From: Chiloscyllium plagiosum
Lineage: Eukaryota
Length of the DNA: 64,000 nucleotides
Direction of reading: 5' to 3'
Assembly (NCBI RefSeq): GCF_004010195.1
Contig: NC_057712.1
Span: forward strand, 89,697,143-89,761,142
Positions within the stretch are counted from its first letter, which is position 1. The number at the start of each line of letters is the position of its first letter. Below the pieces are notes generated by a model. The model did not search any database. It was not told where the DNA came from and saw nothing but the letters and a program-made list of their open reading frames with translations. Below, in pieces: positions 11,115 to 63,631 of this stretch. The translations under genes and the position numbers were made by a program.

Positions 11115-12215
11115 TCATAAGAATTACAAGCAGCAGTAGGCCATTTGTATCTCTGAGGCTTGTAAACCCATTCATTAAGATCATGGCTGATCTAATTGTG
11201 GCCTTAATTCCACTTTTTTGCCTCGACCCAGAGCCCTGTATAACCTCAAGGATATTCAAAGGCCATCCCTTCCTTTATCTCTGGGGTAATTAATTCCAAA
11301 TATCTACACCTCTTTTGAGACAAGAAATTCCTCCATATCTTCATCTTAAATGAGACCCTTATGTTTAAGCAATGCCTTCCAGTTCCATACTCCCCCCATG
11401 TAGGGAAATAATCATCTCAGCATCTATCCTTTCAAGACCCCTTGGATTGTAATTAGTTTCAATATGATCACTTTTCATTCTTCTAAATTTCAATGAGGAA
11501 ATGCCCAACATGAATAATGTGGCCTCACAAGCCAACCTGTTCATCCCAGTTATTAGCCTGGTTAAATTTCTCTGTCATGGAAATGTGTTGCTGGAAAAGC
11601 GCAGCAGGTCAGGCAGCATCTAGAGAACAGGAGAATCGAGGTTTCGGGCATTAACCCTTCTTCAGGAATTCCTGAAGAAGGGCTAATGCTAACGTCGATT
11701 CTCCTGTTCCCTAGATGCTGCCTGACCTGCTGCGCTTTTCCAGCAACACATTTCCATCTCTGATCTCCAGCATCTGCAGACCTCACTTTCTCCTCATAAA
11801 TTTCTCTGTCACCAATGCAAATATATCTCTCCTTAGTAGAAAAAACCAAAACTGTACACAGGACTCCAAGTGTGGCCTCACAAATGCCTTGTTCAATTAA
11901 AACTGGACTTTCATGCTGTTACACTCCATCTCCTGTGCAATGAGGGCCAGATTCCATTTGCCTTCATAATTACTCCCTGTAGTTGTCTGCTAAAGCCTTA
12001 TCATCATGCACGAGCACACCCAGATCCCTCTCGAAGCAGAATTTTGCAGCCTCTCCATTTAAATAACGTTCTACTTCTCTATTCTCCCTGACAAATTTGA
12101 CAACCTCAAATGTTCCTTTATCTGTCAAATATTTGCAGAATTGCTTAATCTACTCCTGTTTTTTGCAGACTCTTTGTGTTCTCCTCCCAACATATTTTCT
12201 TGCCAATCTTTATAT
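11115..12215 (-). mobile_element. Degraded CR1 LINE 3' fragment
   Basis: 3' UTR starting cataagaatt...gtaggccatt, followed by reverse ORF2 remnants. Confidence 0.75.
11578..11796 (+). mobile_element. Penelope-derived hairpin insertion, family A
   Basis: ~90-bp inverted arms centred on gaattc 11666-11671; TSD taaatttctctgtca at 11563-11577 and 11797-11811; homologous to the terminus of the RT element at 53835-53968. Confidence 0.88.
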
Positions 12216-12259
12216 TTGCTTTATAAATACTGGCTTATTTGGTCTGGGTTAGACATCTT

Positions 12260-12380
12260 ACACGGAGAATCGACGTTTCGGACATGAGCCCTTCTTCAGG
12301 AATGCTGCCTGACCTGCTGCGCTTTTCCAGCAGCACATTTTCAGCTCTGTTCTCCACCATCTGCAGTCCTCACCTTCTCC
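12260..12380 (+). mobile_element. Penelope-derived short insertion, family A
   Basis: Inverted hammerhead segment joined to a direct tail; TSD ttagacatctt at 12249-12259 and 12381-12391. Confidence 0.85.
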
Positions 12381-13974
12381 TTAGACATCTTGCATTCAAC
12401 TTTACCTAACTCAAAACCAAGGATGGAAGTTAGACCTTTCATGTCTCGGTGAGAATTCTTCATCTAATTAGTTGGTGAACTTCACAACTGTCTGCTTTAC
12501 TGACACACATCATAGATTACTGAGGAGAGTGCCACACTTGATCAGACACCCAATGAGAGAAAACCTCTGTACATTAGACCACGAAAACTCTGTGGGTAGC
12601 TGTCAGCATAGTGAACAGCGTACGTTGTTCCTTCACCACTGATCATAGAATTGAAGCAAATGAAAATGACCCAAACCATTCACAAAATTACATGAGCATT
12701 GCTAAACTCAGACATAGTCATTAATTAAATTCGAGCTACTTTAATTCAGACTGCAGGAAGAGATTAAGCTAAATATCCATACCAATTAATGTACTTGTAC
12801 GGTTATTTGGTGAGATCCAGTTTAAGAACTATAATACATTTAACTTGATTTACTGTTGGAGTGAAGAAGAGGATAGTAAGTGAGCAGGTTGTGAGAAATA
12901 TTTCCAGGAATAAGTCTTTTGAGACATTGATCTGTTGAATGAGGTGTGTTGGAGCAGGATCATTACATTTTGAGCTGTAGGAGTTGGATTATTAAAACTA
13001 GGCTGCAGAAGATAGTAAATGAGCTGCACTCATTGAACTGTGGTAATTGGGCTGTAGGGAATGTGGTATAGATGTTGAGTTGAATTGCAAGAGCTGGCTT
13101 TATAAACATACTAGAATTGAGCAGAAAGGATAATTTTGTTTTGAAATTGGACTACGGAAGAATGGATTCTCATAGCCTGGTTTCAGACTCTATGTTTTAG
13201 TGTTTTGACTGCAAAAAATAATTTTTTATGAAGATGAAACTGAAAGAATTCAGTTCACATAGAGTGAGTACTGTCATGCTGATGAATGAAGTATTGGAAT
13301 TTTTCTCCATGAGGCTAGAGATCACTATAATATTTGATACATAATGTGTACCTCATCCATTTTATTGCTTTAAACTGTACATGGTTTATGTAAGGATCTC
13401 TTTGAGTACTTTTTCATAAAATTGCATGCTTACCTGCATTAGCGATATTTATGCACAATTCCAGCACAGCATCTTGCTCAGTATCTTGACTATTAAGGAC
13501 GTCATGAGCCTGGTCTCTATAATTTTTCACTCATCGCATCTGAGATGCCGCACTGATAACATGCATTCATAACAACTACCATATAATGTATGCCATACAT
13601 AACTGCACACATTGTACAGAGCCTTGAGTAGGAGAATGAATACCCCACCGTGCTAGTAGGGGATTAAATATTACAATGAGCTTCCCATCAAAAAAAGTGG
13701 TTACCAAAATTCCATTGCTAGCAAAATATATGTAGGTATATGATTTAGTAAAATTTGAAAACATAAAAGTTAATTGTTGCAATAAGATAAACTAGACATA
13801 AAGCAAAAAAGTTGAAAAGCAAGGAGGAATTGAATGAAGAAAATATGTCGGCAAAGGAAGCAGAAAAGAAACATATTAAATTTGAACTTGAATTTAGTAT
13901 GACATACTTATTTCAATTATTAAGGATTATTATTATAGCAATAAAATTATTCTCAATATTGGCTATCTTGTCAG

Positions 13975-14069
13975 TGCTGAAAATGTGTTGCTGGAAAAGC
14001 GCAGCAGGTCAGGCAGCATCCAAGGAACAGGAGAATCGACGTTTCGGGCATAAGCCCTTCTTCAGGAAT
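13975..14069 (-). mobile_element. Penelope pLTR fragment, family A
   Basis: Matches the left arm of the 11578 element; ends at ttcaggaat. Confidence 0.85.
14034..14069 (-). ncRNA. Minimal hammerhead ribozyme motif (family A, intact core)
   Basis: Minus strand attc-CTGAAGA-A-GGGC-ttat-GCCC-GAAA-CGTC-gatt. Confidence 0.7.
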
Positions 14070-14143
14070 CATTCCAATGTACAATAGCACAGCCTTCTCA
14101 AGACCTGAGAACTTGAGTTTCCTGAATTGTTACATCTGAACAA

Positions 14144-14689
14144 TGTTGTGGACCAGCTAGACTCCCTCAATATATTTTAAGAAGGTAGCATAGACCCTAA
14201 CTTTTCTTATTTTATAGGTAGATGTGAAGTGAGTGTTCCAGGTGTGATGCAGCTGGTCGAACCACTTGGCTTTAAGTGAAACAGAATTTATTTGAACACT
14301 ACAGCTGAAACATAAATAAAACAAAATGGAATTTAGAATAACTTAACTGGAAAGCGTAACTGTCCCGATACAATACAGTTACATCCCATAAACACATTCT
14401 TTGGCAAAAAGGTAAATTCAAACACAGATTCTTACAGGCAGGAGGGAACAACTTCCAGAGAGGGCTTCCAAAGGAAAGTCAGAGGAATTCTTTTTGAAGC
14501 TTGCAACTCACCTGGATGCACATACCTTGTGACTACTACACTGAAACCAAATTAGAAAAAACCTGAACTGGGAGAACTGACCACTCCTCTTTCATTGCTA
14601 AACTGGACTCTCCTGCACTTCTGCCTTTATGGACTCTCTTCAAAAAAGCCAAAGACAAAATACCTTTTTAAAGTGACAGCATTGTCACA
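14144..14689 (-). mobile_element. Solo LTR (Gypsy-like)
   Basis: TGT...ACA termini; flanks acaa/acag (4-bp TSD with 1 mismatch); related to the LTRs at 52243 and 54605. Confidence 0.75.
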
Positions 14690-22730: not shown

Positions 22731-24075
22731 GACCATAAGAGACTAGGATCAGTACACCATTCAGCTCATATGTTCCATCATTCAATGAGAACATATTTGA
22801 CCTGATAAGCCTTGACTCCACTTTCCTGCCTTTTCCCAATAACCCTTGGTTCCCTTACATTATTAAAAATCTGGTTATTTCATACTCATAGAAACAGACC
22901 CTTCGGTCCAACCTGTCCACTCAAACCAGATATCTCAACCCAACCTAATCCCACCTGCCAGCACCCGGCCCATATCCCTCCAAACCCTTCCTATTCATAT
23001 ACCCATCCAAATGCCTCTTAAATGTTGCAATTGTACCAGTCTCCACCACATCCTCTGGAAGCTCATTCCATTTACATACCACCCTCTGCGTGAAAAAGTT
23101 GCCCCTTAGGTCTCTTTTATATCTTTCCCCTCTCACCCTAAACCTATGCCCTCTAGTTCTGGACTCCCCGATCCCAGGGAAAAGACTTTGTCTATTTATC
23201 CTATCTATGCCCCTCATAGTTTTGTAAACCTCTATAAGGTAACCCCTCATGAGTACACTTAAAGACAGCCTCAGCAGTCCTCTCTGGTAAAGAATTCCAC
23301 AAATTTACTATACTTAGAGAGAAGGAATGTCTCCTCATTTCTGCCTGCATTCACTGAGCTTAATTCCCCTGGTCCTAGACTCCCCTGCAAGGGGAAACAA
23401 CCTCTCTGCATCTATCTCATCAAAACTTCTAAGAATCTTGTATGTTTTATGCGGTCATCTTCCATTGTTCTAAATTCCAATGAGCCCAGGCCCAACCTAT
23501 CCAACCTGTTCTCATAAGACTGTCCCTCCATACTTGAAGCAAACCAAATAAACTGCGCATAATGAAAATTTGAAAAAAAGGCAGAAGTTGATGGAGACAC
23601 TCAGCAGATCTGGCAGCATCTGTGGAGAGAAAGCAGAGTTAACTTTTCAAGTTCAGATTGCATTCTGATAAGAAGGCACAGACGCTGCAGGATCTGCTGA
23701 GTTTTTCCAACAATTTCTGTGTTTTTCCTCTATACCTGATACCAGCTTAGTGAACCTTCTCTGGACTGCCACCAATGCTAGTGTACTTGCTTTAGATAAG
23801 TGCCCAAAACTGTTCACAGTGTTCCAGTTGTTGTCTGTTGAGTTTCTTAAACAGTTTTAGCAAAATCGACCTACCTTCATACTTCATTCCTTTTGAAATA
23901 AAGGCTACCATTTCATTTGTTTTTCTAATTATCCGCTGAACTTGGATGCTAGCTTTTTGAGATTCAAGACAAGGGTTCCCCATTTCCCTCTATTCTGCAG
24001 TCTTTCTTTGTTTCACTAATATTCAGTTCCTTTATTCTTCCTTCCAAAGTGCATAACCTCACATTTTCCTATATT
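22731..24075 (-). mobile_element. CR1 fragment with a nested younger HER1/CR1 3' end (about 22885-23250)
   Basis: ORFs 22945-23250 (MRGYLIEVYK...WNELP), 23412-23600 and 23792-23983 are CR1 ORF2 pieces. Confidence 0.85.
23575..23727. mobile_element. Older Penelope-like inverted-repeat insertion
   Basis: ctcagcagatct.gcagc inverted against gctgc.ggatctgctgag; interrupts the CR1 fragment. Confidence 0.55.
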
Positions 24076-35883: not shown

Positions 35884-36574
35884 CTCTGGCAGGCTCCTGC
35901 CTCTATGTTTTTGCGAAAGGATTTTCAAATTTAGTGTATAAAATTGACTTCCCTAATCCACCGCCTAATTGTACAGCAATTCTTCTGAGCAAACATCTGT
36001 GTTTGCATTCCCCATGCTATTTCAGGATCTAACTGGTTCCTAATTGCATTTTACAGGCAATTAAGAGGATCAGTTTCTTCCCTTTCATCAGCTGGTATAC
36101 TGTGCAGGAAAGAACTCCTACAGTCTTGCTCACACACTGTAAACACAAATAATATGAACAAACCATCGTAGAAAAATTTGCCCCAAAGCTTTTAGCGTCT
36201 CAAGTCAAACCCTAAATTGCATATGAGTGCAGCAGCATTTCTAAATGATAATAATAAGTGGGTATATAATTATTTTCAATTTAGCAAAATAAGTTTATTT
36301 TATTAACTTGTTGCTTTGATTATATCTTCAGTTAAATTGTTATTAAAAAAGTGAACATGATGTTTGGTTAAGGAGTGTTGCATGTTCAAAGTACAAGTAT
36401 CATTGGGCAGAAATTAATGTTGTGGGGCTAGGCTGTTGTGCTTCCTGTAAAATTGAGCATTACGCGTTAAGAATGGTTCCCAATGTCATCATACTTAAAG
36501 GTTGTAAGCTTGCCCTCACTCAATTAAAGGTCAATTAAGGTAATTTACTGTAGAGTTGGCATATACTTCACACA

Positions 36575-36732
36575 TGGAGCAGGAGAATTGACGTTTCGGG
36601 CATGAGGAATCATGCCCAGCTCATGCCCGAAACATCGATTCTCCTGCTCCTTGAATGCTGCCTGACTTGCTGCGCTTTTCCAGCAACACATTTTCAGCTC
36701 TGATCTCCAGCATCTGCAGTCCTCACTTTCTC
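36575..36732 (+). mobile_element. Penelope-derived hairpin insertion, family A
   Basis: Short inverted arm plus direct tail; TSD catatacttcacaca at 36560-36574 and 36733-36747. Confidence 0.88.
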
Positions 36733-36879
36733 CATATACTTCACACAGCCCAAGTAGCTTTACAGTTGGTGAATGGACTTCAGGGCAAACAAGAATCACG
36801 ACAGACACCTCTCTGTTGTTGAAAACTGAGAGGATAGCACTTAGAAATATAGTCATGGAGGCACGAGTCTGCTATACTG

Positions 36880-42377: not shown

Positions 42378-42547
42378 GACAGCATCCAAGGAACAGGAAA
42401 ATCAATATTTCGGGCAAAAGCCCTTCATCAGGAATGCCCAAAATGTCGATTTTCCTGCTCCTCGGATGCTGCCTGACCTGCTGTGCTTTTTCAGCACCAC
42501 TCTGATCTTGACTCTAATCTCCAGCATCTGCAGTATCCACTTCTGCC
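42378..42547 (+). mobile_element. Penelope-derived hairpin insertion, family A-related
   Basis: Inverted arm ending cttcatcaggaat; diverged TSD taggtgtaggtagtt / taggtatgggcagtt. Confidence 0.8.
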
Positions 42548-45814: not shown

Positions 45815-46205
45815 CTAATTTGACAGAGATGTTCAAAATCAGGAATTGTTTTGATAAATAAATAAAGAGAAACTGATTGTAGTGACAAAAGGGTTGGTAA
45901 CTAGAAGACGCAGACTTAAATTGATTGACTAATGAAACAGAGGTGCCATGAGGAAACATGACAAGATGGGGCTAGAATCAGACAAGATTCCAACAAGAGT
46001 TTTCCAAGTGGGTTCCAAGTGCTTGAAAAAGTGATGAAAACAAATACAAACCAGAATTGGCGAAAAAAAAAAAAATTGCTTGAAGGAAAACATATATAGG
46101 ATTTGGACGATAGAGCAGATGAATTGTATAGTTCTATTCAAAACCCAACATAAGTACATTGTGTCAAATGGCCATCTCTTTTCCTGCTACTTTCTTTGAT
46201 TCCAT
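45815..46205 (+). mobile_element. Degraded CR1 3' fragment
   Basis: LTEMFKI...TRRRRLKL remnants and 3' UTR. Confidence 0.55.
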
Positions 46206-47165
46206 GATACAAATGTAAAATTTCTTCACCTAGTTTAACTTTAAAACATTATATTGCTTATTTTCAATCCAGACAGTTTTGCACTTTGAAAAAAACATTT
46301 CTAAACATTATGGTGTTGGTTTACTTTGTAGCCAACTAACAGCCTGACCAGTGATAACCAGAAGCATCCAAAATCGTCCAAATAACATGTGTAAGGTGTC
46401 TAAGTGGGAATGGAGAACTGGCACATGTTCAAACTTGTTGGAAGTACACAAAGTGACATGATACCCCGATTAATAAATGTACCCACAGTAGACTAAGCAT
46501 TGATTACATCAGTGATGACTTCTTAAAAGTATTTGATTAGTTTTAAAGTGCCTTGAGATGTTCTGAGGTGGTTGAAGCTATAAATGCAGCACGTTTGACT
46601 GAAGGATCTGTTTCCGTGCTGTATGACAATGACTGCATGGGTCTTCCTTTCTGTCTTTCAATTCTATCCATGTGAAATGTTTATTGGATGATATTGATTA
46701 ATGACTTGCTATTTGCCCTATAATTAATGCACTCTGTCCATTTCAATTTGAGTGACCAATCCATTATTGATGTAAACACAGCTTACAAAAGTGATGCTGG
46801 AAATCTGAAATGAAAACAAAAGAAGATGGATGCAATGACTCAGCAGGACAGTCAGCATCTTAGTGACAAAGTTAATGTTTGGGTTGTTCATCAGAACAGA
46901 ATAAAAATAGAAATGCAAGAGCTAAAACTTACGTCTATTTGGCCAAGTGTCAGTTTTGTTGAGTAATTTTGAAGGGTTGCTGGTTGTAAGCTCTAGCAAG
47001 ATCTCTCACTGTATCTTACAAAACTCATGTTACTAACTACCTGTCCCAGCCTATAGTAGCCCTCTTGTCTGATTCTAGCCCCATCTTGCCATGTACATTC
47101 CTCAATTGATTCACCACTGTTGCAGTATCTTAGAATTGACTGGCATCTTGGTACTGTCATCGCCA

Positions 47166-47790: not shown

Positions 47791-49579
47791 CCATCTATCT
47801 CTGATACCTCACACTTACTCTATCTCTGCTGCTGTATCCACTTCCTACCATGTTACTAACACACTGTCACTATTCCCTGCAGCATCTTCTCTCACTGTCA
47901 TCCACACCATCAGCACTAACCTAGCATATCTCTGTGGTGTCTACTCACTTGCTTGGGATACACCCTCCTCTGCACCAAAAGTAACCCCCCTTTCCTTAAC
48001 ATCACTTTCACCTCCTTAATTCAATCTTTTCTCACATTCCAGGAGGTAATCACCATCCAGTGGGCTAGAAGGAGTCAAGGTGGTCAGTGAGCTGCACATC
48101 ATTTTGTTCCTACCCCTTATTTGGAGAAGATCCGCACTCTGTTCACCTTGAATAAAATTGGAAATCTCAATGGGCAAAGGGGAAGAGCTTTAAAATAATA
48201 GTGCAAAATACCAGGCTGGGAAGAATATAAGTAAAAAGGTGTACTTAACCTTCAAAACAAGCTTCACCGAGCAGGCTCAATGAGGCAGGGCTATCATAGA
48301 TGGAACAAAAGCTAAAACATTAATTTATATCAAGGCAGCAATAGCAGAAAAGTCACAGAGTACATTAAAGATGATCAAAAAGCAATTTAAAGGTTTTCAA
48401 AGGTACAGTCGACTGGAAGAGGACAATTTGAAGAAGATTATGATTGTGACAACATTGTGACATTCATAATTTAGACCATAGTTATTGAGGGAAGATTTAT
48501 TACTGCCATAGCCAAAGCAATTTATTTTTTCAATGAGCTGTACATTGTGTTTTAGAACGTAAATGTTGGTGAATGCCCACTTTGCTGGTGAAGAAGCAGA
48601 AAACCTCAATTTTGCCTGTAGGAGGTGGGAATATTCCTGTTTAAAATGTGGGAAACCCCCATTAAGAAGGACAGAGATTTAGAGTTTTTTTTTAGTAGCA
48701 TTTGAAACTTAATGTATGTAAAACACTTCAGCATTATGTCACTCCACACTAGGGAAATACGTTGGAAATTAAGCATCATTGCAAAAGTAAAAGATTTTAT
48801 CAATGTACACAAAATTCCATAAGTCACCTGTTTTTATGATCCAGGCTAATAGAAAGTAAGCACCAAGGTTCTGTGCTTAACAAGCATTACTATTTATTAC
48901 AAATAAATAGATTTTAGTTACAGGTAAACAATATGAACTATTGACATATAATGCTACTAGTTAAAACCTATCCCTTTATAACCACCAGCGCCCTCCACCA
49001 CCACCCCACATATACACACATACAAACAGACACAGAGATGCAAAGAAACAATACATTGGTGAAGAGAAAAACTGGTAAGACAGTTCAAGGATCCCTGTCC
49101 TGAGGGTTTGCTAAGATGATCCTTTCAGCATGACAGAACGTGTTGCTCCTCAATTTCTCTTCTTCAGGCACTTTCACTTGCTTACAGGATCCACAAGAGC
49201 TATTGGTTCACTCTGACTTAGTTGGTTAAAAGCAATATCCTACAGCAAGTGGTGAAGGAAAATACATTGGCTTTCTTCAGGTTTTAGGTATTTTCTACTG
49301 TTGTGACAGACACCACCTCCTTTTCTGGAGATCTGAGGGTTTCTGCTTACATTGTTCAGAATATGCAAACTCCACACACACAGATAGTTACCCATGGATG
49401 GAATTGAACCCGGGTCCCTGGCATTGTGAAGCAGTGGTGCTAGTCACTGAGTCACCGTGCTGCTCTATTTACACCCACAAACTCTTCAACTACCCAGGAG
49501 CCAATCAAAGAGTGTTGATAGGCAGGAAGTTTTTGTCATCAACAACTGGTCACCATTCCACAAACCAATTGAATCACCA

Positions 49580-49870
49580 TAGAATCCTTATTGTGTCGAA
49601 GCACACCATTTGGCCCATTGTGTCCTTCAAACAGCATTTACTGATATAACCCTGCACTTCCTATGGCTAATCCACCATCTCTGGACATATGGGCAATTTC
49701 CCATGGCCAATCCACTAACTTGCATATCTTTGGACTATGGGAAGAAACCAGAGGAAACCCACACAGACACAGGGAGAATGTGCAAACTCCACGCAGACAG
49801 TTGCCCAAGGTTGAAATTGAACCTGGGTCCCTGGTGCTGTGAGGTAGCAGTGCTAACCAGTGAGCCATCA
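49580..49870 (-). mobile_element. HE1-type SINE
   Basis: Reverse HE1; an additional head fragment lies at about 49360-49460. Confidence 0.85.
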
Positions 49871-50149
49871 TGATGCCCACTTGCGCCTGACCAAATCTCA
49901 TTGTGTACACACTTTCTGATTCTGATCCATCTGTAGAAATATACCCCCAAAACTTGAACAAGCACAGTGTAAACAAATTTATAGTAAATGTTGGCAGTTT
50001 ACTTTTAAAGAGTACAGTAATTCTTTCCACAATCCTTGCCTGTTTTAAAAACAGTGTTTCTCCTTTCAGTCAACAACCAAAAATACAATAAAAACTGAAT
50101 TTTATTTTGCAATTGCCTCAACATTTTTACCATTGTACAATTCCATTAT

Positions 50150-50478
50150 GGGCAGCCCAGTGGGTCAGTAGTTAGCACTGTTGCCTCCTAGTACCAGGGA
50201 CCCAGGTGCGATTCCATTCTCGGATAGCTGTCTGTGTGGAGTTTGCGCATGCTCCCTGTGTCTGTGTGGATTTTCTCCAGGTGCTCCAGGTTTCCTTCTG
50301 CAGTATGAAGATGTGCAGGTTAGGTGGACTGGCCATGATAAATGCCTCGTAGTGTCCAGGGATGTGCAGGCTCGGGTTAGGATTGGGAGTGTGGGGTAAC
50401 AGAGATACGGTAGGGGTGGGAGGGTCTGAGTGGAGTGTTGTGGTGGGCTGAATGGACTGCTTCCATGTTGTAGAGATT
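50150..50478 (+). mobile_element. HE1-type SINE (diverged)
   Basis: HE1 head and core, with gattctatgattct tail. Confidence 0.85.
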
Positions 50479-52700
50479 CTATGATTCTAAAGCAAAATCT
50501 AAAACTTATTTGGAAGAATAACATAAACATTGCTATAATATAGAGTTCAAAAGATGTATATACAAAATATATACTCAATATTATTATTATACATAGTTTG
50601 AACATTTGATAAGACTTTAAGACAAATTATTTTTATGCGAAACTTACAAGCTTTAGTACCATCATGATTTATCTATTTTAGACTCATTAGATCTTTGAGG
50701 AAAACAGAAAAAAAACTGCATTGCAATGTTACAGTTTCTTTTAAAACAAACTTTAAAACAGAAAAAAATAACTGCTTTGAGAAGAAATTACTAGAGAAAC
50801 AATATTGCCAACAAAATTTAATGTCAGAGATATATCAAGCAGAACACAGAATTGGACATCTTGGAGAAAAATGTTCTTAAGATACAGAATTGCTTCAAAA
50901 CTAAATATTATATCTCAAATTTAGCAAGTGAACATACCATTGTATTCAGTAGTCTCATTGTAGGTAATGTTATGGATTGCAAATTATAAAAAGCATTGGT
51001 ATTTTTGGAGAAATTCAGCCACTTTTGCTAATTGTTTCAATTTGGGAACTAAAAAATATTCTTGCAAGACAAAGATTTAACAAAATAACTCAGCATCCAG
51101 AGAAAACCACAAATAATTTCAGAAAAAAGAACATATTTGTGGAAACTATGGATCTTTGAGATCAGAAATCTTAAGTGACAAACTTGTCACTAGAGTGATT
51201 CATGAGTCTTTGTCATATTTCTTGTCATTCTGGGAAGATTTGACTTTGGTTCAAGCTATTCAAATTTGCTGTGATAGAAATTGGAAAGACTGAAAGCAAA
51301 TCCTGAGAGGAGAAGTACAACATTTCCACAGGAGACCAACAGAATCTGACTACTTGAAAGGGTGATCAAAATACATATGTGAAAAGCCAACATAAAGACT
51401 CAGCCAAGCAGCAGGTTCAAAGATCAATGCTATGAAACAAAAAAAAAGCCTCACAAGCACAAGCAGCACCCAGTTATTGCAAAAAAAAATTGCATCTGTA
51501 GAACAGTCAGTTATTCCAGAAAGTGTGCAGAAGCTAAATATAATTTCAAAGCAGGAAAGAAGCCAAATACTTTCTCAGGCAATGAGGTTAATGCAGGAGA
51601 AAATCTTATTTAGAAATTATATCCATATAGAACAATACATCTCCACTAAAAATATATGTAAATCATTCCTAGTGGAAATTTATGATCGAACAAATTCTAA
51701 TTTGACAGAATCTGTCTATGTCAATAGATTTGCCATTAATTTTCAGTTTGTAGCAGGTGAAAGTGTCACTGAGCTATTAAATCAAATGTTATGGCTGAAG
51801 AAACAGGAGTTATAAATTATAAAAGTGAAATTATATACGGAAGAAAGTGGAACCATCTCAAGAGCAAAGGTATGCTGCACAAAAAGTATAAGCGAGTTGG
51901 AAATATTTACATAATTTGCAAAGAGCATTGTCATTTTTAAGCCTGCATGCATATATTGAACTCAACATCCTTAAAATAGCAGAAAATGCTCAATTGGTTC
52001 CAACAAAACAAATGGTCCAGGAATAAACTATTGTCCACCAACTGGTAGAGGATTTAATTGGGTTTCTTTGACTCATAGCAGAACTCAAAATGAAGAAAGA
52101 GTCTATTGAGATTATATACATTGGCAAAAGGCAATTATTTTATATTGTCAACTGGAAGGGAGTCACAGACTTCAAAAAAAATTATTTTCTATTCCTATCA
52201 TTACTAAAGATATTCAGACAATAGCAGTCAGTAAAGATTGCCTGTGAAAATTCTGCTCCTTTAACAAGGTTATTTTGCCCTTTTTTTGAGAGGGGTCATA
52301 AAGGCAAAAGTGCTGATATGTCTGAACAGGCTACTTTAATGATGGCAAACAGATACAGCCTAAGGCAACAATCAGGGAAAAAGGCTTTTAGGTTTTTTAA
52401 AAAGACACTTGTACAATGAAAGGGGAGTGGCCAGTTTTTATAGTTCAGGGATTTTTCGATTTTGGTTTAGTTTGACGCTTCTAGTCAAAGAAAGCTGTTG
52501 GGGAGAAAGCTTCCTTGATTCAACAAAGGTTTTCTGGCTGACACTCTCTCTGACATCTCTCCCATAAGAATCTGTGTTTGATTTTACCTTTTTTTGACAA
52601 GGGGGTGTTTATGGGGATGTTGCAAGAAATCAGAACAGCATCATTAGGTTGTGGTAGAGTCACTTGTGTTTTCAGATAGGTTAGATTATTCTATATTCTG

Positions 52701-53968
52701 GATTAGTGGTGCTGGAAGAGCACAGCAGTTCAGGCAGCATCCAAGGAGCAGCGAAATCGACATTTCGGGCGCCACATTGTGCTCCCGCAAGGAGGTTGAG
52801 CAATTCATCAACTTCACCGACATTTTCCACCCTGACCTTAAATTTACCTGGACCATCTCTGACACCTCCCTCCCCTTCCTGGACCTCTCCATCTCCATTA
52901 ATGACGACCAACTTGACACTGACATTTTTTACAAACCCACCGACTCCCAGAGCTACCTGGATTACACCTCTTCCTACCCTACCTCTTGCAAAAAAGCCAT
53001 CCCGTATTCCCAATTCCTCCGCCTCTGCCGTATCTGCTCCCAGGAGGACCAGTTCCACCACAGAACACACCAGATGGCCTCCTTCTTTAGAGACCGCAAT
53101 TTCCCTTCCCACGTGGTTAAAGATGCCCTCCAACACATCTCGTCTACATCCTGCACCTCCGCCCTCAGACCCNNNNNNNNNNNNNNNNNNNNNNNNNNNN
53201 NNNNNNNNNNNNNNNNNNNNNNNNNNNNNNNNNNNNNNNNNNNNNNNNNNNNNNNNNNNNNNNNNNNNNNNNNNNNNNNNNNNNNNNNNNNNNNNNNNNN
53301 NNNNNNNNNNNNNNNNNNNNNNNNNNNNNNNNNNNNNNNNNNNNNNNNNNNNNNNNNNNNNNNNNNNNNNNNNNNNNNNNNNNNNNNNNNNNNNNNNNNN
53401 NNNNNNNNNNNNNNNNNNNNNNNNNNNNNNNNNNNNNNNNNNNNNNNNNNNNNNNNNNNNNNNNNNNNNNNNNNNNNNNNNNNNNNNNNNNNNNNNNNNN
53501 NNNNNNNNNNNNNNNNNNNNNNNNNNNNNNNNNNNNNNNNNNNNNNNNNNNNNNNNNNNNNNNNNNNNNNNNNNNNNNNNNNNNNNNNNNNNNNNNNNNN
53601 NNNNNNNNNNNNNNNNNNNNNNNNNNNNNNNNNNNNNNNNNNNNNNNNNNNNNNNNNNNNNNNNNNNNNNNNNNNNNNNNNNNNNNNNNNNNNNNNNNNN
53701 NNNNNNNNNNNNNNNNNNNNNNNNNNNNNNNNNNNNNNNNNNNNNNNNNNNNNNNNNNNNNNNNNNNNNNNNNNNNNNNNNNNNNNNNNNNNNNNNNNNN
53801 NNNNNNNNNNNNNNNCACTTCAGGCTCACTGCCTTTATTCCTGATGAAGGGCCTTTGCCCGAAACATCGATTTCGCTGCTCCTTGGATGCTGCCTGAACT
53901 GCTGTGCTCTTCCAGCACCACTGATCCAGAATCTGGTCTCCAGCATCTGCAGTCATTGTTTTTACCTC
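52701..53968 (+). mobile_element. 5'-truncated Penelope-like element (probably Neptune group) with inverted 5' pLTR
   Basis: RT/thumb ORF LPFLDLSI...TDIFYKPTDSQSYLDYTSSYP..CKKAIPYSQFLRLCRICS; TSD tattctatattctg at 52687-52700 and 53969-53982; N gap 53173-53815. Confidence 0.92.
53837..53872 (+). ncRNA. Minimal hammerhead ribozyme motif in Penelope pLTR
   Basis: attc-CTGATGA-A-GGGC-cttt-GCCC-GAAA-CATC-gatt (CATC is probably CpG-decayed CGTC). Confidence 0.7.
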
Positions 53969-54049
53969 TATTCTATATTCTGTTCTCTTTTGTTCATGTT
54001 TCATTCGGTACCCTGTTAATAAATTCTAGAAACGTCATCAGAATCTTTG

Positions 54050-54604: not shown

Positions 54605-55082
54605 ACTACTGATTGAAACATGAACAGAATATAGAATAACTTAACCTGTCTGAAAACTCAAGTGACGCTATAACAACTTAATGATGCTGTTATGATTTCC
54701 TGCAACATCCCCATAAACACCCCATTGGCAAAAAAAATGTAAAATCAAACACAGATTTTTAAGGGAAAGATGTCAAAGAGAATGTCATCCAGAAAACCTT
54801 TGCTGAATCAGGGAACCTTTCTCCCTATTGGCTTTATTTTACCAGCAGCTTCAAAGTAAACCAAAATAGGAAAATCCCTGAAATGGGAGAACTGGCCACT
54901 CCCCTTTCATTGAGCAAATTTTTTTTTAAAAACCTAAAAGCCCTTTTCCCTGATTGTTGCCTTAGGCTGTATCTGTTGGCCATTATTAAAGTAGTCAGTT
55001 CAGACACCTAGGCACCTCTGCTTTTACAACTCCTCTCAAAAAAAGGATAAAATAACTTTGTTAAAGGAGCAGCATCATCACT
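54605..55082 (-). mobile_element. Gypsy-like LTR in inverted orientation
   Basis: Colinear reverse complement of 52243-52700 plus 53983-54005. Confidence 0.85.
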
Positions 55083-55587
55083 TTGCTGAACTAGTCAATG
55101 GGGAATTTGTACCTACTATTATCATGCAACAAGCTGCATCACATGTAAGACAGGTGCCTCTTTTTATTAAACTGTGATAGTGATTTATCCTTGACCACTA
55201 CTAATTATCTTGTAGTACAGTCACAATAGTGTTCCTACCACTGTACCAGGAGGCCTGGGTTCAAGTCCCATCTGCTCCAGAGATGTGTAATAAAATCTCT
55301 GAACAGATTGATTAGAAAATATCTGGAAAGGAGAATTGATAGCAACACTCTACCCCAAACCACAACCTACTGTTTGTTAGTACTACAATTTATGACAGAA
55401 TAGTCATCTAAGAGATGACAGAGGTTGAGCCACGGACATGGTAAAATGGAGAAAGGATCTAAGGGAGGACAAAGAATAGGTAGGAATAATGGAGGAGTAA
55501 AGTGTGAAAAATCTAGTTTCTGAGTGTGTGTTAGGGAGTTGAGCCGGGGGGTCAGTCAGTCAAGTTCAGTAGGGGGAGCACTTAAAT

Positions 55588-55703
55588 GGCTTATACCTGA
55601 AACATCGGCTCTCCTGCTCCTTGGATGCTCTCTGACCTGTTGTGCTTTTCCAGCGTCATGTTTTTCGACTCTGACCACCAGCATCTGCAGTGTTCACTTT
55701 CTC
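55588..55703 (+). mobile_element. Diverged Penelope pLTR fragment
   Basis: gaaacatcggctctcctgctccttggatgct...ccagcatctgcagt. Confidence 0.75.
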
Positions 55704-59411: not shown

Positions 59412-60995
59412 TGGAGGCTGCTAAATTAGGAAAAAGCCCATGGTATTAAAGGCAACATACTGGCATAGATGGAGGATTAACTCTCCAGCAGAAGGCAGAG
59501 ATTGGGATTAAGGATCTTTTTCAGAATGGCAACTGGTGACTAGTGGAGTTCCGCAGAGATCAGTGTTGGGATCTCAACTATTCGGGCTGAACATTAATGA
59601 TTTGGATGAAGGCACCGAGGGCATTATTGCAGATGACACATAGGTAAAGGGACAGGTAATGTTGAGGAAGCAAAGAGGCTGCAGAAGGACTTGGATGGGC
59701 TAGGAGAGTGGGCCAAAGAAGTGGCAGATGGAATACAATGTGGGAAAGTCTGAGGTTATGCACTTCGGAAAGAAGAATAGAAGCATAGACTATTTTCTTA
59801 AAGGCGAAAGACTTAGAAAGTTTGAAGCACAAAGGGGCTCTAGTTCAGGATTCTCTTAAGGTTAACATGCAAATTCTGTTTGCAGTTGGGAAGGCAAATG
59901 CTGTGATAGTATTTATTTCAAGACGGCTAGAATACAAGAGCAGAGCTGTACTACTGAAGCCATATAAGGTTCTGATCAGATTGCATTTGGAATATTGTGA
60001 GCAGTTTTAGGCTCCATATCTGAGAAAGGAGGTGCTGGGATTGGAGGCAGTCCAGAAGAAGTTTACAAGAATGATCTCAGTGATGAAGGATCACGATGAT
60101 TTAGACAAGTTCAGTGAGTGGGCAAAAACATGACAGATGCATATTTTGTGACTTGAGTGTGGAAAACAGAAAGGAAGAGTATCAGTTAAATGGTGAGACA
60201 TTGGAAAGTGTGGTTATACAAAATAATGTGACTATCCTTATACACAAGTCAGTGCAAGTAAATAGGCAGGTATAGCAGACAATTTTGGAAGGAAAATGAT
60301 ATATTGGCCTTCATTGCAAGAGGATTTGAGTTCGGAAGTAGTGTTGTCTGACTGCAAGTATACAGTGCCAGGTGAGATCATACCTGGAGTATTGTGTGTA
60401 GATTTGGTCTCACTTGCTGAGAGAGTATACTTGCCATAGAGGTTAAAAATCACACAACACCAGGTTATAGTCCAACAGGTTTAATTGGAAGCACACTGGC
60501 TTTCGGAGCGACACTCCTTCATCAGGTGATTGTCGGAGCTTCGCTCCGAAAGCTAGTGTGCTTCCAATTAAACCTGTTGGACTATAACCTGGTGTTGTGT
60601 GATTTTTAACTTTGTACACCCCAGTCCAACACCGGCATCTCCAAATCATGCCATAGAGGGACTGAGGGTGTTCACTGGACTGACCAGATTTAACAGGGCT
60701 GACCTGTGAAGAGAGATTGGTTCATCTGGGCCTGTACTCACAAGAGTTTAGAAGGATGAAAGGGACCTGTTTGAAATTGAAAGGTTAACTTATAGAATTC
60801 TCATCACAGAAGGCTGTGGAGGCCAAATTACTGAACATGTTCAAGTAAGTGATAGGCATACTTTTCACATTGAAGTCATCAAGTAATGTGGAGAGAAAGC
60901 TGAAATATGACAATGAGATAGAGGATCAGCCATGAGAATAATGAATGTTGAAGTGGGTTCAACGAGTCAAATGACCTACTCCTGCTTCTAGTTTC
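59412..60995 (+). mobile_element. CR1 LINE ORF2 remnants (two joined fragments)
   Basis: KAHGIKG...[14 protein letters not shown]...INDLD...ADDT RT motifs and 3' UTR. Confidence 0.88.
60443..60648 (+). mobile_element. Penelope-derived hairpin insertion, family B
   Basis: Long inverted arms; TSD tgccatagagg at 60432-60442 and 60649-60659; hammerhead-like core on the minus arm. Confidence 0.85.
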
Positions 60996-62196
60996 TGTAT
61001 ATGTTTGACAGGAGCTGGACAACCATGACAGTGCTGTCTCACTAATTCTCATGGCAATGCAGCAGGCTTGTTGAAGAGTTTACACAAAAAAAAAACCTGT
61101 GTCTATGCATGAAAGATAATTGTACAGGTAATGGAAGTCTTGTTTTTCCAGTTCTTTAAGTTCAGGCAGTATTTCTATGAAATGCAGTTACAAACTTGAT
61201 AAAACCATACAACTTTATCAAACTTTTGTTTTTTGGATGGATGCTGAGGAACTGCAAAGAATTACTAATGGCACATATAGGCTCCACATGACAACTTCAA
61301 AGAACAGATTGGAACTTTGATTACAGAAATGAATCATGGCATTAACAACTTCTCCCCCTGTAGCTGCATAATTTATTAAGTTTGAAACAATCTATGGGAT
61401 ACACAGTTATTTGACTACAGGTAATTGCTGGTACATTAAGGCTATAGAGGACAGCCATAGCTGCTTACTCTATTTAGTAACTAAAGAGGCTCAGAACAAT
61501 ATAATGAAGCATATACTGGCACTAGCATGCCCTCATTATAACCATCAGCATCATTCAATTTAGGTTCAGTTCTCTGAAATAATCAGGGATTGCTGCAGCC
61601 TAAAGAAACACAAAAAGAAATTCAAAATTATTGTTGCATTTTAAATAAATTTATCCTGTAAAGCATTCCGAATGTGTATCATGATGTGAAGCAAATGTTG
61701 AAGACAGGCAAAATCAAATGTCTGGAGATATGTCCTCTCAAATAGCCATTCATCAGTGATTGGCTATTTATGTATCTTATTAGAAACTATAAGATGCAGC
61801 AGTTATTTGCATATATATGCACTACCAGCCAAATAAAAAAAAATCACTCAAATTGCCCTTGGTTTTACACCAGAACTATTGAATGCCATGGAGTTTCTCA
61901 TTGACTATCTGTAGCAAAAGGACTTGCCTAGTCATTGTGCAATGTTGAGTTACATCCCAGTGCCTCACCTTTGTTACATTTTATTGAGATATTAGTGCCA
62001 TTTCATTTTTAAAAATGTGTTCATGGGCTGATGACATCGCAGGCAGGATTTAGCCCATCTCTAATTGTCCAGAGGGCAGTTTAGAGTCAATCACATTGTT
62101 ATGGGTCTGAAGGCCAGATCATGTAAGGATAGCATATTAACTCATTTAAAAATCACACAACACCAGGTTATAGTCCAACAGGTTTAATTGGAAACA

Positions 62197-62231
62197 CACT
62201 AGCTTTCGGAGTGCCGCTCCTTCATCAGGTG
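62197..62231 (-). ncRNA. Minimal hammerhead ribozyme motif (family B)
   Basis: Minus strand cac-CTGATGA-A-GGAG-cggca-CTCC-GAAA-GCTA-gtg. Confidence 0.72.
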
Positions 62232-62310
62232 GTAGCGGAGGGTTCAATCCTAACACACAGAATTTATAGCAAAAATTTACAGTGTGATGTAACTGAAATC
62301 CCTCCACTAC

Positions 62311-62345
62311 CACCTGATGAAGGAGCGACGCTCCGAAAGCTAGTG
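62311..62345 (+). ncRNA. Minimal hammerhead ribozyme motif (family B)
   Basis: cac-CTGATGA-A-GGAGC-gac-GCTCC-GAAA-GCTA-gtg; stem I cac/gtg, 5-bp stem II, palindromic AGCT. Confidence 0.8.
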
Positions 62346-63631
62346 TGTTTCCAATTAAACTATAACCTGGTGTTGTGTGATTTTTAACTTTGTACACCCC
62401 AGTCCAACACCGGCACCTCCGAATCATATTTACTCATGGCTTTATTGGATCAATGAAGGGGGCTTATCTTTATTTGGAAACAAGTTGAATGGTATCTGCA
62501 GCCTTGTGAGAGTCATTGTTCGTCAATGATGACTGCTGAGAATGTTTGTATCGTAAGTGAATACATTCAATACTCCAAAGTAATAAAGGTAACTTTTTCT
62601 GAACATATTTGACAAAGTTTATTCTGCAAGCTTTGTTCCTGTTTGGACAGTAAAATGAAAACAATTCGGTTTTTTTCAGAGTATTGAGAGGAGTGTAATA
62701 AATAGCAAAGATACTTTTCAGACTTGCGCTTAAAATGAGTTAGTAGCCTTATATTTTGAGAGTTGACATATTCTTGATTCCTAAGAACAAGGGAATAATG
62801 CCAAAGGTCATTTTGCATGCACAGTGCTTCGACTACCTTGCGTTTAGTTCAATTTTCTTCTTCATGTGTAAGCCAAAGCAAGCATGTGCTATGAGGTCAA
62901 TGAGGTCAAGATCCAATTATGAGAAGACACTTGAAGTTGGGGATAAATCAATTTGAACAGAGAAGATTAACAGAAAATGTCACTTTTTTTTAAAAAGGTC
63001 TCTTGGAAATTTTACAGTAAATAAGGGAAAGTACATAGGCAACAAAAGAGAGAATTAAACTGGAGTACAAAATGGTTTGGACAGATGTCAAAAAATTAAG
63101 CAAGAGAAAAGAAACTCTGCAAATAAAATTACCAAGACAAAATGTTTTACATACATATTAGCAACAAAAAAAAACAGAATAGGTTTCAGATTACTAAAGA
63201 ATACCAACAATAAGCTCACAGGTGATACCAATAAAATAACAAAAAATTAAATAATTGCTTTGCCTTTGTATTTACAGAACTAAAATGAAGTGCAATAAAT
63301 TAATGAAGAGAGAAAAACTTGATGTAAAGACATTTAAGATGGAACTGGTAAAGATAAATTGAGAAACAATTCAAGCAGAGAGTAAAATATTCTTATGTAG
63401 TTGGATTGCATCTGGTATACAAAAATAACTTAGTGAAGAAATAGTCGAGGGACAAATGCTAATGCATTTATTGAAAGATTCATTAAAAATGTCTATTATC
63501 AATCTATCCATGCCTCTCTAAATAACGATTAATACTGTTCCTCTGATTTTTTTCCCAATTTGTCAAACTAAAGGCCTGACTGGTCTATAGTTATTTTCTC
63601 TATCACTGTCCTCATTTTTAAACAGCCTTCC

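Follow-up and report, generated by a model that had tools for sequence, protein, structure and literature searches.

Short Penelope-like insertions in a Chiloscyllium plagiosum window share a 5′ edge beside a hammerhead motif

Insertions in the window

The window, a 64,000-nucleotide stretch of the Chiloscyllium plagiosum genome, holds a family of short insertions (family A) that are pLTR stubs of a Penelope-like element (PLE), probably an endonuclease-bearing one, of published architecture. We listed the copies by self-BLAST of the window and then mapped each arm on the 3′ end of the one copy that carries reverse transcriptase (RT) sequence. Numbering takes the first base of the CUGA core, its C, as +1 and the preceding base as −1; in the RT copy, +1 falls at 53841, −4 at 53837 and +29 at 53869. 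A distant relative at 23575–23726 without a recognisable core was left out of the arm counts; it is a module of broadly similar kind but more distant, with 50-nt arms placed head to head.

The copy at 11578 lies between exact 15-bp target-site duplications (TSDs; 11563–11577 and 11797–11811) and consists of a tail-less inverted arm on the minus strand (11578–11669, −4 to +88, hammerhead core at 11642–11665) and a direct arm on the plus strand (11668–11796) that runs from −4 to the tail end at about +130 and has a 3-nt deletion in helix II/GAAA; an AT is common to both arms, making the copy a palindrome without a spacer. At 12260, an 11-bp TSD (12249–12259, repeated at 12381–12391) encloses an inverted arm with an intact core (12260–12303, minus strand, −4 to about +40) and, joined to it with AT microhomology, a direct arm containing no part of the ribozyme (12302–12380, plus strand, +47 to the tail). 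The copy at 36575 has a 15-bp TSD (36560–36574 and 36733–36747), an inverted arm with +3 to +13 deleted (36575–36610, minus strand, −4 to +42) and a direct arm from +11 to the tail (36619–36732, plus strand), separated by an 8-nt insertion (36611–36618, plus strand) that appears to have been copied from the adjoining direct arm. In the copy at 42378, which belongs to a second subfamily with CUGAUGA, the inverted arm (42380–42435, minus strand) spans −4 to +52 and the direct arm (42435–42547, plus strand) +16 to the tail. The arm at 13975 (13972–14069, minus strand, −4 to about +92) is solo and tail-less, and an old direct-only copy (55585–55703, plus strand) begins at about +7 with no TSD found. 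Where the solo arm ends (14065–14075), it is followed on the plus strand by C-ATTCC, so that GGAAT-C-ATTCC forms a 5-bp mini-palindrome around one central base; this could stem from a cap-templated C plus snap-back, or from chance.

The copies measure 219, 121 and 158 bp between TSDs and about 168 bp at 42378, in keeping with the 120–220 bp given in the initial annotation, but the arm at 13975 has about 95 bp and no direct partner. The claim that most copies have TSDs of 11–15 bp stands for the exact repeats of 15, 11 and 15 bp at 11578, 12260 and 36575, which make up only three of the five copies: no TSD flanks 13975, and 42378 has only a doubtful 6-mer (42367/42548). As a distant TSD for 13975 we found only 8–10-mers 12–18 kb off, which were taken as chance. 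Exact flanking 11-mers occurred in 2 of 3000 random placements. In all three cases checked, the outer ends have short microhomologies with the TSD, of 1, 2 and 6 nt. The inner junctions share AT (11578, 12260) or T, one of them carrying the templated insertion, as in microhomology-mediated joining.

The two arms of 11578 differ at 4 of 89 sites, against at least 7 of 92 in comparisons with full-length arms of other copies, and those of the RT copy at 3 of 70, against at least 11 of 70; the arms of one insertion are thus closest kin, implying one source variant or later homogenisation. The arms of 12260 leave a gap of a few bases, whereas those of the other three two-armed copies overlap by 31–92 nt. 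In 12260, 36575 and 42378, the inverted arm contains sequence upstream of the start of the direct arm, which a fold-back of the tail-primed cDNA could not supply. The tail, at about +93 to +128, is confined to direct arms.

The RT copy (52701–53968; 1268 bp, of which 643 are N) has a 14-bp TSD (52687–52700, repeated at 53969–53982) whose last 6 nt match the element. Its inverted arm (52701–52770, minus strand) covers +17 to +86, or to +92 including microhomology, and stops short of −4. It is followed by a 5′-truncated Penelope-type RT fragment with 134 open codons (52771–53172, plus strand), an N gap (53173–53815) and the 3′ pLTR module (53816–53968, plus strand), in which natural upstream sequence leads up to −4, the core lies at 53841–53864 and the tail at about 53933–53968. 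The RT fragment (P0001) is 87–89% identical to Chiloscyllium punctatum proteins and 60–67% identical to whale shark and ray proteins, and a Pfam scan of it alone gave only a sub-cutoff PAH match. The homologue P0003 has RVT_1 and a DKG motif, P0007 (67% identical) combines RVT_1, a CX4CxxC linker and GIY-YIG, and P0039 also has GIY-YIG; in the window's RT copy, the GIY-YIG part is hidden by the N gap. According to the accessible part of PMC8557442, a CX2-5CxxC linker before the endonuclease defines Neptune/Nematis, and the linker sequence in P0007 points to an element of Neptune/Nematis type rather than Poseidon.

The RT copy had been described as carrying the same terminus and as a candidate autonomous partner. 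The 3′ module is indeed shared, but the inverted arm ends at +17 and the direct arm passes −4; autonomy must be rejected, as the copy begins just after YxDD (residue 455 of P0003), is truncated and belongs to another subfamily, about 78–86% identical to family A by BLAST. A full ORF between two direct pLTRs is absent from the window, the only ORF piece being the one that starts after YxDD, and tblastn with seven homologues found no further piece in the window. The signs of an endonuclease-bearing (EN+) PLE seen there are the inverted 5′-truncated pLTR, the tail at one end and the TSD (three of five mini copies and the RT copy); a PLE-type RT joined to the terminal module was found in just one subfamily, that of the RT copy. 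Near this copy, 52602–52700 and 54625–54723 form a 99-bp inverted pair (90%), and 53969–54027 resembles 14283–14340, which together indicate that it landed in another repeat.

The window contains further repeats. A second hammerhead PLE family (family B; 60432–60659 and 62133–62437) has CUGAUGA, a 5-bp helix II and an AGCU palindrome, and is represented by two inserts, 206 and 279 bp long, whose arms stand head to head between TSDs of 11 and 13 bp; one of its arms stops at −3, the two arms of 62146 extend beyond the edge in the upstream direction, and the tails end in CAT and contain, by eye, a possible intron (GT...ccccAG). A 32-bp inverted pair (45956–45987 and 47063–47094; 97%, 1075 nt apart) resembles the ends of a small DNA transposon. 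Inverted copies of another repeat (72–79%, up to 129 nt) at 49377–50277 are presumably LINE/SINE 3′ ends.

The hammerhead motif and the edge at −4

The solo arm carries, by sequence, a minimal type I hammerhead motif (14034–14069, minus strand, −4 to +32) with CUGANGA and GAAA boxes, helix II, a palindromic helix III and H17; helix I, which has 4–5 bp in the definition of this type, comprises here, by eye, 2 bp, a U.U mismatch and 1 bp. The consensus proposed earlier, CUGA(A/U)GA-A-GGGC-N4-GCCC-GAAA-CGUC with a palindromic ACGU, matches the sequence. From standard hammerhead numbering, we take the cut to fall after the C at +28 (+28/+29), here between 14038 and 14037. A like motif in PMC11167929, as far as that source is accessible, supports this position. 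As the predicted cut lies 32 nt downstream of −4, self-cleavage would not be the source of an edge there. An Rfam scan at the gathering cut-off gave 0 matches, and minimum free energy folds did not produce the active hammerhead as a monomer. Scans for the motif gave one match in a metagenome collection, a chance hit in GC-rich coding-like DNA, none in a viral collection and one in GTDB, where a hammerhead-like motif had unrelated flanks. A 1.1-kb Desulfobulbaceae MAG contig (L002:301-327) ends in a minimal hammerhead-like motif with ACGU and is possibly host DNA in the bin.

Five of the six minus-strand arms in the self-BLAST set end at −4, the sixth being that of the RT copy. They comprise the inverted segments at 11578, 12260, 13975 and 42378, correctly reported in the initial annotation as ending in ttcaggaat or atcaggaat, and that of 36575, whose reading as a deleted variant of the same junction we confirm. 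Five of six arms falling in one 3-nt bin has a chance of ~1e-5 to 1e-3 under a uniform null with 85 to 25 possible positions. Among the direct arms, one of six, that of 11578, has its 5′ end at −4. The starts of the partner arms differ across the −4 copies (−4, +47, none, +11 and +16), so each junction was formed anew. Position −4 is the last base able to pair in helix I.

We compared 4 of the 24 listed public runs with the reference 53816–53990 at 80% likeness: X1 (DNA, possibly from the source sample), X5 (DNA, another study with the same species label), X10 (DNA, a second species label) and X21 (poly(A) RNA from a single cell, about 2% read). Loose ends immediately before −4 were found in 579 of 4456 partly matching contigs in X1, 475 of 3375 in X5 and 596 of 5021 in X10, and in 263 of 1918 RNA reads in X21; in each of the four runs, this was the largest entry of the "before" type among the 24 of 771 entries listed. 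Position −3 adds 181 loose ends in X1 and 151 in X5, and no entry at +29 occurs among the 24 listed. Position −4 is thus the top listed 5′ pile in three of three DNA runs with two species labels.

The loose parts in DNA are long (median about 250) and agree with each other at 0.33–0.34. Simulation gave 0.32 for unrelated flanks, 0.33–0.35 with 10% shared sequence and 0.37–0.41 with 20% shared; the observed values fit about 10% or less shared upstream sequence, although the simulation's definition of agreement may differ from the one behind them. Long and poorly agreeing loose parts suggest that most DNA ends are independent junctions to unique sequence, like 13975. In X21 the agreement is 0.45, indicating a larger shared part than in the DNA runs. 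The divergence of other subfamilies from the reference immediately upstream of −4 is a confounder: the loose-letter consensus there ends in CCTC, and their natural upstream sequence forms part of the pile, perhaps 25–35% of the RNA reads. Of the 1984 matching reads in X21, 98% run on into unlike sequence; the run has no pile of read begins or ends, its library type being unable to show transcription starts.

Among the 15 of 19 joints listed, five change strand, and four of these have −4 on one side, with partners at +39, +41, +42 and +93. Several tandem-like joints listed return to −5 to +1, and +92/+93, the boundary of the ~36-nt tail, recurs. The partners +39, +41 and +42 (reference 53879–53882), like +47 at 12302 in the window, lie just 3′ of the hammerhead; in these few joints the first RT has perhaps stalled near +39 to +47 or copied a cut, trimmed RNA. 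Depth in X1 is 2.2 million at −13 to −8 against 6.1 million at −1 to +5, edge effects included; many copies read through −4, and the edge is thus a strong preference and not a rule. It is the 5′ end of copies generally, whether solo, direct, inverted or tandem, and not a property of the inverted arm. The proposal that a fixed boundary defines the insertions therefore holds in that the boundary beside the hammerhead exists, genome-wide, but it bounds direct and solo copies as well.

Possible origin of the edge

The insertions are probably short retrocopies of the pLTR end module (the hammerhead, about 100 nt and the 36-nt tail), with both target strands acting as primers after nicking and one cDNA running off the 5′ end of the RNA. 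A protein of the element, an enzyme postulated from the observed TSDs, would nick the two strands 11–15 bp apart. The bottom strand would prime at the tail end, at about +128 to +130, and give the direct arm; on the top strand, a second cDNA would be primed at about +88 to +93 or deeper within the module and give the tail-less inverted arm, a step suggested by the observed arm ends and by analogy with the Poseidon element of Anolis carolinensis (PAc) and L1 twin/dual priming. The second cDNA, and often also the first, would run to −4, the presumed 5′ end of an uncut template RNA. Joining, either of the two cDNA ends with each other or of one of them with the target, would use 1–2 nt of microhomology and at times add a templated insertion. 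The copy at 12260 would fit twin priming on one RNA, and the overlaps of 31–92 nt would need strand displacement or two RNAs. In the accessible part of PMC11167929, the PAc protein cleaves and extends both strands, reverse transcription has two internal starts, which delimit the tail, and the protein is modelled as a dimer and uses uncut RNA; two-strand extension with two RT starts would leave, between TSDs, a direct arm with a tail and an inverted arm without one. As the predicted cut is 32 nt away and a structural block would be expected at the 3′ side of the fold, the simplest interpretation is that the RNA has its 5′ end at −4.

This RNA end may further be the transcription start of an internal pLTR promoter, with the A at −4 as initiator +1, a sequence-based reading that we hold tentatively and at slightly less than an even chance. 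The initiator consensus is YYANWYY. It fits the −4 context TT|ATTCC of the RT copy and apparently TC|ATTCC of other subfamilies, taken from the loose-end consensus, but the fit is weak, as 1.3% of positions match and YY precedes ATTCC at 50 of 188 window sites. The pLTRs are stated to hold a promoter and start site in PMC2377424 and PMC8557442, as far as these are accessible. Against a start site at −4, the downstream element RGACGTGY of Penelope (PMC2377424, accessible part) was, by eye, not seen at +28 from −4, and the same text places the D. virilis start at 371, considerably upstream of the hammerhead. A cap-derived extra G is not the rule either: G precedes −4 in two of five window arms, perhaps from the template in one of them, and C is the last letter of the loose-end consensus in four of four runs. 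Two observations count against a run-off at −4 as such, namely that the RT copy arm stops at +17 and that two of three core-bearing family B arms miss the edge; the family B arm that does stop there, at −3, has no initiator fit. We also considered a splice acceptor at −4 and rejected it, as the RT copy has no AG at −6/−5 and the consensus of the other subfamilies ends in TC.

Beyond this, we think it unlikely, though conceivable, that the RNA begins with the ribozyme so that uncut hammerheads, through the palindromic ACGU, pair two templates for a dimeric RT-endonuclease. The start would then be the first helix I base, and each nicked strand would prime the copying of one template, the copies being joined in head-to-head orientation. 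If so, millions of years of insertions would record a start site at single-base resolution, and PLE hammerheads would have a non-cleaving job.

Other explanations of the edge are less likely. On a longer RNA, a folded and possibly dimeric hammerhead, or a bound protein, might halt the RT where helix I ends; the outermost position of helix I coincides with the edge both for family A (−4 with +32) and for one family B arm (−3; CAC/GUG), two motif copies cofold at −24.1 kcal/mol against −16.4 kcal/mol as two monomers with helix II kept, and the PAc hammerhead is protein-assisted (PMC11167929, accessible part). We still regard such a stop as unlikely, because an RT moving 3′ to 5′ meets the fold at about +32 and no pile at +29 to +33 occurs among the entries listed, because helix I is so short and interrupted, and because many contigs pass −4, as the X1 depths show. 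Cutting of the cDNA or a duplex intermediate by the GIY-YIG endonuclease at the ATT that starts at −4 would agree with the preference of PAc for 5′-ATT-3′ in its own pLTR (PMC11167929, accessible part), the edge reading ATTC; yet the six TSD ends show, by eye, no ATT at a constant place, the family B edge lacks ATT, and other ATT sites of the module (+30) have no pile among the entries listed, leaving this improbable. Equally improbable is that the edge goes back to a single non-autonomous master stub, or a small number of them, beginning at −4 by chance. The private variants in both arms of 11578 allow that variant stubs act as sources, but at least two subfamilies (11578-type and 42378-type) and two species labels show the edge, the junction partners differ, and read-through masters should bring along a flank, yet the flanks are unrelated. 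A master stub starting its own RNA at −4 would merge with the explanation by RNA run-off.

Self-priming by fold-back, possibly on an antisense template, has been proposed for rotifer PLEs in PMC3846280, whose accessible part reports palindromes at inverted junctions, and both the perfect palindrome of 11578 with its near-identical arms and the snap-back-like 5-bp end of 13975 recall it. It is nevertheless an improbable source of the head-to-head palindromes: 11578 has no spacer for a loop, three of four two-armed mini copies have asymmetric arms, of which the tail-less one retains −4, junctions of solo −4 ends with unique DNA abound, and fold-back gives no reason for −4. That ribozyme self-cleavage makes the RNA end defining the insertions seems hardly credible, even though the motif is intact in the best copies and the common core substitutions in DNA, among the entries listed, affect N7, loop II, a CpG and a site where the reference itself deviates. 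A cut at +28/+29 would remove the core that the arms retain, the listed loose ends show no pile at +29, and PAc uses uncut RNA, the accessible part of PMC11167929 stating that reads ending at its cut site were not found.

The run-off from an RNA beginning at −4 is the reading that we prefer. The base-exact edge in hundreds of independent junctions per run suggests that templates are usually uncut RNAs whose end lies immediately ahead of the core. It also defines a precise RNA, −4 to about +130, with which priming on one RNA or two could be compared in vitro.

Relation to known elements

The inverted arm, the one-sided tail, the TSD, the junction palindromes and the minimal hammerhead are all already published. 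Canonical EN+ PLE units, in the accessible parts of PMC8557442 and PMC3846280, share with the window units a 5′-truncated direct copy with an adjoining inverted 5′-truncated pLTR, a 30–40-bp tail at one end, TSDs and head-to-head junction palindromes. The window units differ in being 95–220 bp long and non-coding, and those texts describe variable truncation and name no single-base hammerhead edge. PAc, as far as PMC11167929 is accessible, has the same hammerhead layout with ACGU, an RT start about 120 nt behind the core, cutting and extension of both strands, and uncut RNA; that text makes no mention of where PAc copies have their 5′ ends. In contrast to PAc, the shark relatives carry the CX4CxxC linker (P0007), and the PAc ORF starts in helix II, whereas the core ATG of the RT copy meets, by eye, a stop after 16 codons. 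The minimal hammerheads of metazoan PLEs (PMC4209133, accessible part) are alike in their short helix I, bulged base before helix II, G10.1–C11.1 and palindromic 15.2–16.2, and are mostly solo with some opposite-strand pairs 100–700 bp apart; the window motif differs in its 4-bp helix II. The helix I edge of D. virilis is given there as a splice acceptor, unlike that of the window element.

L1 twin/dual priming, in the accessible part of PMC2837659, similarly yields an inverted 5′ part, TSDs and microhomology or small deletions at the inner junction. The window copies are not L1 products, since their arms overlap by up to 92 nt, they have no poly(A), and the enzyme is presumably of the GIY-YIG family. 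Animal non-LTR retrozymes (bioRxiv 10.64898/2026.07.22.740005, accessible part) are likewise non-coding, with a type I hammerhead and kinship to PLE pLTRs. They form tandem units, whereas the window copies are dispersed, head-to-head or solo, and start before the core; consecutive head-to-tail units with complete hammerheads were absent among the family's BLAST matches in the window, and the few tandem-like joints come from outside it, among the joints listed for the public runs.

The role of the PLE hammerhead and the origin of the inverted ends are stated as open in the accessible parts of PMC8557442 and PMC11167929, and we found no description of a fixed single-base 5′ edge at the hammerhead in the literature, covered mainly through open-access main texts. 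The sharp genome-wide 5′ edge is a new detail of otherwise textbook PLE stubs and refines a known system.
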